Under the pieces are notes generated by a model. The model searched no databases. It had not been told where the DNA came from and saw nothing but the letters and a program-made list of their open reading frames with translations. Shown piece after piece: positions 4,801 through 15,060 of a stretch of DNA of 19,384 nucleotides. The position numbers and the translations under genes are program-made. The DNA is from a virus. Lineage: Duplodnaviria > Heunggongvirae > Uroviricota > Caudoviricetes. Within the stretch, counting starts at the first letter, position 1. Each line of letters opens with the position of its first letter. The stretch is from the IMG/VR virus record IMGVR_UViG_2703718792_000011, positions 1 to 19,384 of that record. One strand, written 5' to 3'.

Positions 4801-5493
4801 TTATGCAAAACGGTGTAGTGTCATAGGCCAACTGACAATTACTTTTCCGTCAATGTGAAGTTGTTCAAAGTCTTCCGGTTCGATAGCCCAATCCTTGTAA
4901 GCTGGGTTGTCAGATATCACCGTTAGAGTATCTTTGATTTTTTGAAGTCTTTTGATGTGCGATGTTCCAGAGTATGTAAAGGCGTATATACCATCACCAT
5001 TAAATGTGCGAACTGATACATCTACAAATACCAAGTCTTCAGGGTCTATTGTGCCTTTCATACTGTCGCCGTGGGCGTTTATTGCTTTGATTGCTGATGC
5101 TGGTCTGCCGCCAAAAACTCTTGATGCGTATCCTGGTTCTATCGCTATAGATCTGACAATGTCAGGAAAATCAGAGTTATAACTACCAGGTCCGCAACTA
5201 TATCTGATGTCTAAAACATCCACGACATACGAATCAGTAACCCAATCCTCAGAAATGTTACGTATTTGGTGTGAGTCTGCAGAGGTCACGATTTCCATTG
5301 GGCCAACACCCGATGCGAGCCATTCCGGGTTAACGCCCAAAACTTTTGCTATTTCGACTGTTTTTCTGGAACCGTTGGCTTTGTTAAGTAGTTGATTGAC
5401 ACTGGACTGAGCCATACCCACTTCTTTGGCCAGCCTACCTTGCGTAAATTTTGCGTTGCGCATAGCTAAATCAAGTCGTTCTGAAAATGTCAT
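4801..5493 (-). CDS. cI: cI-type prophage repressor (N-terminal HTH, C-terminal LexA-like S24 peptidase autocleavage domain)
   Basis: 230-aa ORF. N-terminus has an HTH (FTQGRLAKEVGMAQSSVNQLL). C-terminus has the Ser/Lys dyad context (GDSM ... HIKRL) typical of S24 repressors. GGAGG precedes the ATG. It is divergent from the cro-like gene. Confidence 0.9.
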   Translation of the reverse strand: MTFSERLDLAMRNAKFTQGRLAKEVGMAQSSVNQLLNKANGSRKTVEIAKVLGVNPEWLASGVGPMEIVTSADSHQIRNISEDWVTDSYVVDVLDIRYSCGPGSYNSDFPDIVRSIAIEPGYASRVFGGRPASAIKAINAHGDSMKGTIDPEDLVFVDVSVRTFNGDGIYAFTYSGTSHIKRLQKIKDTLTVISDNPAYKDWAIEPEDFEQLHIDGKVIVSWPMTLHRFA

Positions 5494-5527
5494 TGCGATT
5501 TTCCTCCCCTCTCTATCTTGGCTAGTC

Positions 5528-5543
5528 TATCGGCTTTCCGATA
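5528..5543. promoter_or_regulatory. 16-bp perfect palindrome TATCGGCTTTCCGATA in the cI/cro intergenic region; candidate OR operator
   Basis: Read directly from the sequence. A partially similar half-site, TATCGCTTTTCC, lies at 5566..5577 inside the putative PR spacer. Confidence 0.5.
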
Positions 5544-5561
5544 AATGTTCTAGGTTTAACG

Positions 5562-5590
5562 TTGAATATCGCTTTTCCTGTTGTTATTAT
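5562..5590 (+). promoter_or_regulatory. Candidate PR promoter for the cro-like gene (TTGAAT, 17 nt, TATTAT)
   Basis: -35 at 5562..5567 and -10 at 5585..5590, about 22 nt upstream of the cro ATG. Confidence 0.5.
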
Positions 5591-5612
5591 GCGTTCAATA
5601 GGAGATGCGATT

Positions 5613-5858
5613 ATGAAACATAAAGCCATAGAGAAAGCTATTGAGATTCTTGGAAGTCAGCAAGCCTTAGCCAAGCGATGCGGAAAGGCCCAGTCAACAG
5701 TCTGCGATTGGTTGAACTGCAAGAACAAGATTTCACCAGAATTTGTGCCGTTATTGGTTGCAGCTGTCGACGGAAAGATCCAGGCGTATGAATTTCGTCC
5801 AGACCTACCAGAGCTTTTTCCACATCCAAGCTTAGCGCACACAGAGGATGAGAAGTGA
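5613..5858 (+). CDS. cro: Cro-like HTH regulator (YdaS/Cro family), 81 aa
   Basis: Start placed at ATG 5613 (GGAGA with 7-nt spacer); the track start at 5562 lacks an RBS. The motif ILGSQQALAKRCGKAQSTVCDWLN matches the YdaS-type Cro HTH pattern as I recall it. Divergent from cI. Confidence 0.8.
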   Translation: MKHKAIEKAIEILGSQQALAKRCGKAQSTVCDWLNCKNKISPEFVPLLVAAVDGKIQAYEFRPDLPELFPHPSLAHTEDEK

Positions 5859-5928
5859 TGGTGGTGATATGAGCGAAAAAATAACTATTAAATACGATGG
5901 GGCAACCATTTCGATTACCCCAATCACA

Positions 5929-6222
5929 TTAGCGTTCGCTGAGAAGTTGTTGGTAAGCCTTAAAGGATGCGAACTGCATTCTACCTTCGGCATTGATTCC
6001 AATGCCTTCGCTTGTACACCAGGCGATGAACTCGGCTGTATCCGCTTCAACTTTAATAACTCGTTGCCCGCTTCTTTCGACACGCTTAATCAATTTTTCA
6101 GCGTCGTGTTTCCACTCGGTGTAACTGTCGGAGAGCACATCAGCATCAGTAAAAATATTTTTGAGCTCATGATACTGAATCGCATCGCGAAACCAGAATA
6201 AACCAACGGCCTGAACTTTCAT
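5929..6222 (-). CDS. Hypothetical protein (97 aa) encoded antisense within the rightward early operon
   Basis: AAGGAGG lies 6 nt upstream of the ATG at 6222. It is convergent with cro and divergent from rha. No recognisable domain. The overlapping + strand ORF 5848..6201 has no RBS. Confidence 0.7.
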   Translation of the reverse strand: MKVQAVGLFWFRDAIQYHELKNIFTDADVLSDSYTEWKHDAEKLIKRVERSGQRVIKVEADTAEFIAWCTSEGIGINAEGRMQFASFKAYQQLLSER

Positions 6223-6335
6223 GTCGAACCTCCTTTGGTTCTTTTGTTTATAGGGATCAACAGGATAACTGAAGGAAGGTTCGGCACCAATAAGTACGAA
6301 TGTGCGGAATCTTAAAAGAATTTATCCGTAAGGAG

Positions 6336-7049
6336 ATGGCAGTGAACACCGCAATTTTTAACGGCAAAGCATCCATGACCAGCCTTGAAATCGCAGAGTT
6401 GGTGGGCAGCCAACACAAAGATGTTAAGCGCAGCATTGAAAGGCTCATGGATAAGGGGATTATTCGAAGTGCGCCAATGGCGAATTTCGAAATAATCAAC
6501 AACTTAGGATTAAAACGAAATGTAGGTGCTTACATCTTCGAAGGCGAACAAGGTAAGCGCGACAGCATCATTGTCGTCGCACAGCTTTGTCCCGAATTCA
6601 CAGCCCGCCTGGTAGATCGCTGGCGTGAACTGGAAGAACAGATCCGTAAGCCAATGAGCGAAATCGAAATGGTTGCCGCGATGGCTCTTGAAGCTGTTCG
6701 TCAGCAGAAACGGATCATTCAGGTGGAAGAAAAAGTCAGCCACGTTGCCGAAACAGTTGAGCAAATCAAAAAGGGCACCATTCGTGAGGGCTATGCCGGA
6801 TATCGCCAACTGAAAGCGAAAACCGGTTTGTCAGATGATAAATGCCGCAATCTGGTGAACGCTTATCAAATTCCTACAGACACCCACGAGTTCATGACGC
6901 CGGACGGATTGTTATCACGTCGCGCAATTGTTGCTGTGGAACCGTTTATGGCTGCTTTTTATCGGGTTATGGAGGAAGCAGAACCGCGAGGGACTCGCTG
7001 GTATCACCCGAAAATGGGGTTATTTCAGGTTATTGGCTGGCAGCGGTGA
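6336..7049 (+). CDS. rha: Phage regulatory protein Rha family (antirepressor-like)
   Basis: The N-terminal motif MTSLEIAELVGSQHKDVKRSIERL is characteristic of the Rha family as I recall it. AAGGAG abuts the ATG at 6336, so an alternative GTG start at 6342 (6-nt spacer) is possible. Confidence 0.8.
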   Translation: MAVNTAIFNGKASMTSLEIAELVGSQHKDVKRSIERLMDKGIIRSAPMANFEIINNLGLKRNVGAYIFEGEQGKRDSIIVVAQLCPEFTARLVDRWRELEEQIRKPMSEIEMVAAMALEAVRQQKRIIQVEEKVSHVAETVEQIKKGTIREGYAGYRQLKAKTGLSDDKCRNLVNAYQIPTDTHEFMTPDGLLSRRAIVAVEPFMAAFYRVMEEAEPRGTRWYHPKMGLFQVIGWQR

Positions 7050-7073
7050 AAAAAAGCCGGGTAGTGACCCGGC
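7049..7073 (-). terminator. Rho-independent terminator oriented for leftward transcription, immediately 3' of rha
   Basis: GCCGGGT-AGTG-ACCCGGC hairpin (7056..7073) preceded on the + strand by seven A (7049..7055), giving a hairpin plus U7 for a - strand RNA. On the + strand the hairpin is followed by UCGCUC, not a U-tract. Confidence 0.55.
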
Positions 7074-7265
7074 TCGCTCAACGTTGATACAGGCAACTGC
7101 ATAAAGCAGGCCCAAGAATCCAAGAACGTTAACAAAAATACCAGTAAGCATATGAATGTTTCAAGCCTAAATATTGATTCTGCAATTTCGGGACGGTACA
7201 CTGTCCAAGCACCTTATAAAGCGGGTGCCGGGATTGGCGTCCTGGAAATGTTATCGGCGATATAT

Positions 7266-7285
7266 GACGCGCCAGCGTCTTTTTT
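7266..7285 (+). terminator. Candidate rightward intrinsic terminator or attenuator upstream of the cII-position gene
   Basis: GACGC-GCCA-GCGTC hairpin (7266..7279) followed by TTTTTT (7280..7285). The stem is only 5 bp, so it is weak. Confidence 0.35.
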
Positions 7286-7451
7286 ATCGTCTGCGTCTGC
7301 GCACACCCAAATTATGGTGGGCTGGACGGGGGCACCGAAAGGTGCGCCGGTTTCCGATAACGCCGGTTACGCCAACCCCGTTCAGTTCACCACCAGCGAA
7401 ATTGGCGTTTCCGGTGGTGAAGGTAATTCACTGTTATCGGAGGCTGCCATC

Positions 7452-7814
7452 ATGGCTACAGTCCCAACTTCCCCATACCTGAAAATCGAAGTCGTCAACG
7501 GCAAGGCCGTTATTTTCTCCCTGCATGTTGCCTGCCATTTCAAGCGCATGCACCAGAACATCGTCGACAAAATCGAGTATCTGAACTGCTCGCGCGAATT
7601 TTTTACCCGCAATTTCATACCGGGTACTTATCACATCTATGGTGACTCCCTGCGTGGTTATTACATCACCCTTGATGGCCTGATGATGCTTCAGCTTGGG
7701 TTAAGTCTACGCACAATGCGGTACTACGAGAGCTGCATTGAAGCATTCCATGAGGCAGGGAACAGCCTGAATCTTACCGCTTTCCGCCGTAATCAGTGGG
7801 AGGCGCGTCCATGA
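7452..7814 (+). CDS. Hypothetical early-right protein (120 aa) in the cII position; possibly a CII/YdaT-like regulator
   Basis: Start placed at ATG 7452 (GGAGG with 8-nt spacer); the track's upstream extension to 7152 has no RBS and contains a terminator-like hairpin. The YdaT-like label comes from position after a YdaS-type cro only, not from a recognised motif. Confidence 0.6.
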   Translation: MATVPTSPYLKIEVVNGKAVIFSLHVACHFKRMHQNIVDKIEYLNCSREFFTRNFIPGTYHIYGDSLRGYYITLDGLMMLQLGLSLRTMRYYESCIEAFHEAGNSLNLTAFRRNQWEARP

Positions 7815-14007: not shown

Positions 14008-15060
14008 ATGAAAAACACTGTAAAAATAAACAGTGTTGATTTAATCAACGCTGATTGCCTGCATTTTATTCAGTCCCTGCCTGATGATTCCATTGACCTG
14101 ATTGTTACCGATCCGCCTTACTTCAAGGTGAAACCCAACGGTTGGGACAATCAGTGGAAAGGGGACGAAGATTACCTTAAGTGGCTGGACCACTGTCTGG
14201 CCCAGTTCTGGCGGGTGTTAAAGCCTGCCGGAAGCCTTTACCTGTTCTGTGGGCATCGCCTGGCATCTGATATTGAGATCATGATGCGTGAACGTTTCAA
14301 CGTGCTTAACCATATCATCTGGGCGAAGCCGTCCGGACGTTGGAATGGGTGTAATAAAGAAAGTCTGCGCGCATATTTTCCTGCCACAGAGCGCGTTCTG
14401 TTTGCTGAACATTACCAGGGGCCATATCGCGGCAAAAGTGACGGCTATGCGGCAAAAGAAAGGGAACTCAAACAGCACATAATGGCACCGCTGATATCGT
14501 ATTTCAGGGATGCTCGTGCCGAACTGGGTATAACGGCAAAACAAATTGCCGAAGCCACAGGTAAGAAAAATATGGTTTCCCACTGGTTTGGTGCCAGTCA
14601 GTGGCAGTTGCCGAACGAGGCTGACTATCGGAAGTTACAGGCACTGTTTTCCCGTATAGCGGCAGAGAAGTTTCAGGAACAACAACTGGAACAACCACAC
14701 CACCAGCTGGTGGCATCTTATGATTCACTGAATCGCAAATATTCTGAATTGCTGGATGAGTTTAAATCTCTCCGGCGCTATTTCTCCGTATCAGTCTCCG
14801 TGCCTTATACCGATGTCTGGACGCATAAGCCCGTTCAGTTCTACCCGGGTAAACATCCGTGCGAGAAACCGGCGGATATGCTCCGGCAAATAATCAATGC
14901 CAGTAGTCGCCCTGGTGATCTGGTTGCTGATTTCTTTATGGGATCCGGTTCCACAATAAAAGCAGCAATGGCGCTGGGGCGTCGGGCGTTAGGTGTTGAA
15001 CTTGAGTCAGAGCGGTTTAATCAGACGGTGAAAGAGGTAAGTGAACTGTTGGGGAAATAA
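14008..15060 (+). CDS. Orphan DNA methyltransferase (beta-class N6-adenine or N4-cytosine MTase; DPPY motif precedes the AdoMet-binding FxGxG motif)
   Basis: Motif IV IVTDPPYF near the N-terminus and motif I FFMGSGSTIKAAMALGRRALGVE near the C-terminus. No restriction endonuclease gene is adjacent. Confidence 0.9.
   Translation: MKNTVKINSVDLINADCLHFIQSLPDDSIDLIVTDPPYFKVKPNGWDNQWKGDEDYLKWLDHCLAQFWRVLKPAGSLYLFCGHRLASDIEIMMRERFNVLNHIIWAKPSGRWNGCNKESLRAYFPATERVLFAEHYQGPYRGKSDGYAAKERELKQHIMAPLISYFRDARAELGITAKQIAEATGKKNMVSHWFGASQWQLPNEADYRKLQALFSRIAAEKFQEQQLEQPHHQLVASYDSLNRKYSELLDEFKSLRRYFSVSVSVPYTDVWTHKPVQFYPGKHPCEKPADMLRQIINASSRPGDLVADFFMGSGSTIKAAMALGRRALGVELESERFNQTVKEVSELLGK

Follow-up and report, generated by a model that had tools for sequence, protein, structure and literature searches.

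Several described systems resemble the locus analysed here. The oop RNA of phage lambda is a 77-nt leftward RNA whose unit lies within the rightward early operon, between the early regulators and the replication genes; its promoter is in the O gene, and it overlaps about 55 nt of the coding sequence of the neighbouring gene cII, with its terminator about 25-55 nt inside cII, and cleavage of its target message depends on RNase III. A short stand-alone RNA gene is also known from the late region of EHEC prophages, namely HnrS (EcOnc10-12), a 66-nt Hfq-dependent sRNA that has its own promoter and intrinsic terminator, mapped ends and the target hha (PMC13502914). Small structured RNAs with an allelic body, such as C4 of P1/P7 and IsrK of Gifsy-1, belong to antirepressor control modules of the P1 immI / Gifsy-1 isrK-orf45-anrP type (PMC4825925). 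In P22, sar is antisense to the ribosome-binding site of ant. The morons of lambdoid phages are compact cassettes with their own promoter and factor-independent terminator, which carry a protein gene and fill non-shared DNA between shared modules.

The DNA that we analysed (19,384 nt, called the window throughout) is a lambdoid E. coli prophage, of which positions 6950-7300 are 100% identical to strain MS8345. Its genes run from the integrase and the leftward early genes through CI, a Cro-like gene, ORF 5848-6201 and rha to a spacer unit and then the replication genes (Table 1). We consider it somewhat better than an even bet (a probability of roughly 0.55) that the spacer, at 7049-7164, is a self-contained leftward unit making a predicted non-coding RNA of ~80 nt. 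A sigma-70 promoter with an extended -10 would drive the synthesis of this RNA, which would end at a strong intrinsic terminator with a U7 tail, and the transcript would consist of a short 5′ segment with the invariant GUUCUUGGAU, a middle hairpin, a short linker and the terminator.

Table 1. Features of the leftward unit and its surroundings (positions in the window).
Feature	Position	Strand	Remarks
CI repressor, LexA/S24-type	4801-5493	-	downstream of the leftward terminator
rha	6342..7049	+	Phage_pRha domain; stop codon TGA 7047-7049 is the left edge of the leftward unit
U7 tail (A7 on the plus strand)	7049..7055	-	7049 is shared with the rha TGA, as its final A
Terminator hairpin GAGCCGGGU-CACU-ACCCGGCUU	7054..7075	-	folding energy about -15 kcal/mol; 9-bp stem
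Invariant GUUGAG block	7077..7082	-	linker just 5′ of the terminator
Middle hairpin SL1, GGGC-CUGC-UUUAU-GCAG-UU-GCCU	7091..7113	-	folds on the plus strand too
Invariant 10-nt block GUUCUUGGAU	7118..7127	-	near the 5′ end of the predicted RNA; single copy in the window
Predicted transcription start	7128..7130	-	5-7 nt past the -10; placed by promoter geometry
Extended -10, TGgTATTTT	7135..7143	-	-10 TATTTT at 7140..7135; TGaTATCTT in lineage C
-35 hexamer, TTGAAA	7159..7164	-	18-nt spacer; same in all three lineages
isrK-module promoter, TTGATT-17-TACACT	7175..7203	+	TTGATT 7175-7180, TACACT 7198-7203; read directly from the sequence
isrK sRNA	7209-7285	+	Rfam match above gathering score, 63.7 bits, E 8e-12
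C4 antisense RNA	7310-7397	+	Rfam match above gathering score, 82.8 bits, E 2.8e-15
Replication genes (HTH/DnaD-like, IstB/DnaC-like, DnaB helicase)			right of the unit

Compared with oop, the unit has a similar predicted length, the same leftward orientation within a rightward early operon, the same location between early regulators and replication genes, the same class of promoter and a strong intrinsic terminator, here a predicted one, at the end of the upstream gene. However, its neighbour is rha instead of cII, and its promoter adjoins the isrK promoter. An nhmmer profile built from 26 unique copies gave no match in lambda 38000-39200 at E-values up to 10. The resemblance to oop that the original prediction put forward holds for the predicted size, the promoter class and the position, and does not extend to a cII neighbour or to sequence similarity. 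Nor is the predicted RNA antisense to the 3′ end of a coding region, as it shares no more than 1 nt with rha, the final base of the TGA; an effect on coding sequence in the manner of oop is therefore impossible.

With HnrS, the unit shares the format of a short stand-alone prophage RNA gene, a GC hairpin followed by a long U tail, and a conserved 5′-proximal block as a possible seed. HnrS is a late-region gene whose RNA ends are mapped and which binds Hfq and targets hha; the present unit is predicted from sequence signals and lies in the early region, and no target was found for it in the window. The promoter and terminator signals looked for in Hfq-type sRNAs are present: the stem has 9 bp, the tail is U7 here and U6-U8 in relatives, and the promoter stands 80 nt upstream. 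Like C4 and IsrK, the predicted RNA is small and structured and has an allelic body, and it directly adjoins the antirepressor module that isrK and C4 control; unlike them, it is encoded on the opposite strand and matches no family, whereas C4 and IsrK are identified by Rfam, and isrK modules elsewhere occur without the leftward unit. It differs from P22 sar in lying upstream of the module promoter and not across the ant ribosome-binding site. The likeness to lambdoid morons lies in the compact format, with a promoter and a factor-independent terminator belonging to the cassette itself, and in the filling of non-shared DNA between shared modules; here, however, the cargo is a predicted non-coding RNA and not a protein gene. 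A literature search that included the hairpin sequence gave no match to the leftward RNA, and it turned up no CLIP or CLASH data on strains that carry the unit. On its sequence features, the unit is plausibly best filed among the stand-alone prophage sRNA genes, as one that has not been described.

The leftward terminator that the original prediction placed against the rha stop codon is indeed there. Its core, GCCGGGT-AGTG-ACCCGGC (RNA GCCGGGU/ACCCGGC), lies at 7056-7073 and is extended on the minus strand to GAGCCGGGT/ACCCGGCTT (7075..7054). The minus strand reads GAGCCGGGUCACUACCCGGCUU, then U7, and is the top-ranked terminator-like site of the window; the plus strand after the hairpin reads TCGCTCAACG, which is not U-rich. 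Since the plus-strand sequence past the hairpin is UCGCUCAACG, the terminator is one-way, leftward, with the U7 on the minus strand only. When a strict terminator was defined as a perfect 7-bp stem with 5 or more GC, a loop of 3-8 and 6 or more T among the next 8 positions, three were found in the window against 0.04 expected from 300 shuffles (75-fold over expectation), so the site at 7049-7075 is not due to chance. The other two directly follow cI and ORF 14008-15060, and both are functional gene ends. As had been claimed, no credible minus-strand gene ends at 7049-7075, and there is none for more than 12 kb upstream; the ORFs that cross the site read through the hairpin, and RefSeq annotates nothing on that strand. 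In summary, 7049-7075 is a real, strong intrinsic terminator without a gene to serve. Rfam gave no match to the unit at gathering score, the hits to SorY (17.8 bits vs 111) and AS-pc01 (16.5 vs 79), both over the terminator, being at chance level.

The promoter-like site predicted on the minus strand was likewise recovered. A promoter scan found TTGAAA-18-TATTTT (7164..7135), properly spaced and sigma-70-like, at 9/12 with the TG upstream, and lambda pO also scored 9/12 with TG in the identical scan. By itself this match is weak, because promoter-like sites of this class are no commoner in the window than in shuffles (20 vs 24.2 expected). One contig of about 90 carries TTGGAA in place of the -35 hexamer.

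To the right, the leftward promoter stands back-to-back with the promoter of the isrK and C4 genes, which form a control module of the P1/Gifsy-1 type. The placement of TTGATT-17-TACACT puts the predicted transcription start at 7209, where the isrK model begins, and this promoter stretch is kept in every context compared. No plus-strand terminator was found between rha and the isrK module. RefSeq annotates an 'ash family protein' CDS at 7152-7814 (+), with a start that precedes the isrK promoter. The Phage_ASH match of this CDS in Pfam (aa 16-108; 7197-7475 region) coincides exactly with the isrK and C4 RNA genes, and a protein domain (Rha) is present in the C-terminal part only (aa 123-201). 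The ATG at 7452, which has GGAGG at 7439-7443 before it, looks a more credible start than 7152, and the Phage_ASH family may largely represent translated conserved RNA genes.

We also noted several features to the left of the unit. A perfect 16-nt inverted repeat (GGCAACCATTTCGATT / AATCGAAATGGTTGCC, at 5901-5916 and 6662-6677) has its arms 745 nt apart, one in ORF 5848-6201 within a minus-strand hairpin (5922..5898) and the other in rha; about 1e-3 such repeats are expected by chance in 2.6 kb. The rha arm is common among relatives, and both arms occur in only three of the sequences searched, including the window. A weak terminator-like hairpin on the plus strand (GAACCTCCTTTGGTTC, then TTTTGTTTAT; 6226-6241), in the gap between ORF 5848-6201 and rha, might gate the expression of rha in a tR1-like manner. 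The window and MS8345 (L001) are the same across rha and the spacer and differ upstream of the rha start (direct comparison at ~6250-6340), which places a mosaic junction just left of rha; the annotated repressor and small regulator gene of MS8345 are not collinear with the window ORFs (~5270-6340).

The DNA that is common to related loci extends rightward as far as the rha stop codon and begins again at ~7172, and the leftward unit fills almost exactly the non-shared DNA between rha and the isrK module. At 13 distant rha loci (from Yersinia, Providencia, Proteus, Trabulsiella, Atlantibacter, Citrobacter and Budvicia), there is no leftward terminator, and the next rightward gene overlaps the stop codon or directly adjoins it, which rules out the terminator as a general feature of rha genes. 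It is not a general feature of isrK modules either, as the other contexts compared (YmfL-DUF4222, phiP27 ant, tandem copies and a divergent RelE-like gene) have none, and in these the rightward gene extends up to the isrK promoter. In one Stx2a phage, a different segment replaces the spacer. A clean empty site, with the same rha joined directly to isrK in a sister phage, was not found. Judging from these comparisons, the unit may be read as a moron-like insert placed exactly at the junction of rha and the isrK module. A decayed DUF4222 gene, the occupant of this position in other contexts, was considered as the origin of the spacer and rejected, as local alignments were no better than shuffles. 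Some IMG/VR prophage contigs carry tandem isrK promoter modules in two or three copies, with a spacing of 656 nt in L014, L015, L017 and L166 and of ~850-870 nt in L169, L181 and L188.

The spacer occurs as three alleles, all in E. coli prophages: allele A is the window type, allele B the SE11 type, which is 10-12 nt longer, and allele C the R6 type, also present in phage ASU11 and many Stx2a-converting phages and carried by O26, O103 and ST131 strains. Alleles A and B were found in 33 of 5426 complete E. coli genomes and allele C in 204 of 5426 (about 237 in total), and ~90 IMG/VR contigs bear one of the three. No further lineage appeared in three IMG/VR pattern scans or in a BLAST search of GenBank phages, and a metagenome scan with a loose pattern yielded two true matches among 120 rows and no new lineage. 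The flanks are near-identical across alleles (a single difference in the final 50 nt of rha and none in the isrK promoter), and the spacer body between them is ~65% alike, with indels. Within this body, the identity between A and C is 6/6 for the -35 TTGAAA, 2/2 for the TG of the extended -10, 5/6 for the -10 hexamer (TATTTT vs TATCTT), 10/10 for the GTTCTTGGAT block just past the predicted start and 6/6 for the GTTGAG before the terminator, compared with 8/15 for the promoter spacer and 2/7 for the discriminator. All three alleles keep the -35, TGnTATyTT, GTTCTTGGAT, the middle hairpin and the terminator, and the terminator hairpin with a T6-T8 run is present in every copy. Conservation of the terminator and promoter in related prophages, which had been named as a check on the prediction, is therefore seen across three diverged alleles; the statistics of this conservation are weak and post hoc, because there are only three independent lineages, all from E. 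coli prophages. In the adjoining module, the isrK loop differs among phages with an identical allele-C spacer (CCGGGATTGGCGTCCTGG vs CCGGGGGTCGCAGCCCGG; Stx2_EH2201, L003, alignment at window 7232-7250), which implies that the spacer allele and the isrK/C4 specificity are not coupled.

Folding of the candidate transcript had been proposed as a further check. We computed the folds lineage by lineage and not as a consensus, the automatic consensus fold being uninformative because MAFFT misaligned the hairpins. The whole predicted RNAs are more stable than shuffles (z-scores of -3.1 to -4.7). A middle hairpin of -10 to -12 kcal/mol lies at the same relative position in all three lineages and is made of unlike sequences, with the arms GGGC-CUGC...GCAG-GCCU in A, GGC-CUUC...GAAG-GCC in B and GGAGC-GUUU...AAAC-GCUCC in C; its stability is matched by shuffles in fractions of only 0.016, 0.011 and 0.043. 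The GUUCUUGGAU block is identical (10/10) across lineages A, B and C, while the bases that flank it vary, and it is partly paired in the predicted folds, so that it is a candidate either for a seed or for a part of a closing helix. The GUUGAG block is predicted to pair with a 5′ GUUC in lineages A and B.

We next consider what such an RNA might do. No CI-operator-like sequence (TATCGG-N4-CCGATA, as seen at pR/pRM and pL) was found near the unit; hence, the promoter is probably unrepressed and the RNA probably transcribed in the lysogen. The sole base-pairing partner evident from the sequence is the rightward early transcript that runs from rha into the isrK module, and as this is the only certain complement, we prefer a mechanism of cis/antisense pairing. 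The RNA would pair with the rha 3′ untranslated or intercistronic stretch and not with coding sequence, which would be oop-like in principle. In searches of the window and of the isrK, C4, rha, cro and cI leaders, no trans target beat the shuffles. A trans-acting, Hfq-type role through the conserved 5′ block comes slightly behind the cis-antisense role and is nearly as likely, since the succession of conserved 5′ block, stem-loop, linker and long-tailed (U) terminator is typical of Hfq-dependent trans-acting sRNAs. It is also conceivable, and in our view quite unlikely, that this RNA serves the antirepressor region as a second immunity RNA with allelic specificity, made constitutively in the lysogen from a promoter back-to-back with that of isrK. 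When a phage of the same allele is induced or superinfects, such an RNA would pair with that phage's early-right transcript over the stretch from rha to isrK; the expression of either the upstream gene, rha, or the downstream antirepressor and replication genes would then be uncoupled or destabilised. The split of the body into three alleles, between flanks that are almost identical, would on this view be due to diversifying selection for specificity.

The main rival to a functional RNA, possible though on balance unlikely, is that the unit is an insulator, in which the selected element is the terminator and the short RNA a functionless by-product. The terminator would block leftward transcription that starts beside the strong constitutive isrK promoter and that, if unblocked, would run antisense through rha, ORF 5848-6201 and cro, then sense into cI. 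The terminator is the best-supported part of the unit, cI does lie downstream on the minus strand, and the fast divergence of the RNA body, with its indels, as well as the outcome of the search for trans targets, would suit such a role. However, an insulator gives no reason for the retention of a good extended -10 promoter, or of the 10-nt block and the middle hairpin in three alleles, and isrK modules elsewhere manage without a leftward terminator. That the promoter-like site and the hairpin are chance neighbours in a decaying spacer, for example the remnant of a deleted gene, is very improbable: promoter-like sites do occur at chance density and no stretch of the region varies more than the spacer, but the 75-fold excess of strict terminators, the functional nature of the other two, the retention of specific blocks across alleles and the lack of similarity to DUF4222 all argue against it.

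A different view of the hairpins is that their role is in the rightward early transcript, where they would stabilise the 3′ end or provide a processing site behind rha, with the A7/U7 run incidental. Both hairpins are able to fold on the plus strand, and the two strands fold about equally well. In L016 and L026 of allele C (11 of ~75 contigs), the middle hairpin is weakened on the minus strand and kept on the plus strand through G-U pairing. In L009, by contrast, its pairing is kept only on the minus strand through G-U, and in the terminator of L175, a C to U change gives a G-U pair on the minus strand only; both variants break the plus-strand pairing. A compensatory U-A to C-G change in the terminator of strain WAT is strand-neutral. 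From these mixed signals, the middle hairpin may matter in both the RNA and its rightward complement, or be weakly constrained. For alleles A and B, folding favours the minus strand over its complement by 5-7 kcal/mol, and a plus-strand role leaves the conserved leftward promoter unexplained. The U tail, present as a T6-T8 run in every copy, and the putative promoter make sense for a leftward RNA only, and we regard a role confined to the rightward transcript as improbable. Scarcely credible is the last alternative, that the RNA is a message for a small hydrophobic protein or type I toxin, encoded by the hydrophobic ORF at 7151..7020 (-) or another short ORF. This ORF has 43 codons, not 45 as first given, and its first 20 residues are hydrophobic, which is what speaks for a toxin; a second minus-strand ORF of 58 aa (7201..7025) also crosses the terminator. 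However, the 43-codon ORF has no Shine-Dalgarno sequence, its ATG (7151..7149) falls in the promoter spacer and thus ahead of any transcription start that this promoter could give, and its frame runs across the terminator. Within lineages A and B it is frameshifted by 1-nt indels, with a 1-nt deletion in ETEC1732 and differences of this kind among the lineage-B copies, and in lineage C, the ATG is ATA and stop codons occur in every frame. It has no Pfam match, and the other internal AUG ORFs differ from lineage to lineage. With no conserved ORF, a type I toxin or small hydrophobic protein was rejected, in agreement with the earlier view that the ORF is not credible.

Prophage sRNAs of a like kind have been shown elsewhere to control virulence, induction or superinfection. 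If the unit were an insulator terminator only, it would be ordinary phage housekeeping. If the leftward RNA is real, a small prophage RNA that annotations lack would be present in about 4% of complete E. coli genomes; the carriers include STEC O103, O26 and O157 strains, Stx2a phages and ST131 strains, and the unit would stand at a regulatory hot spot, between two Rha-type regulators and beside the isrK/C4 antirepressor switch.
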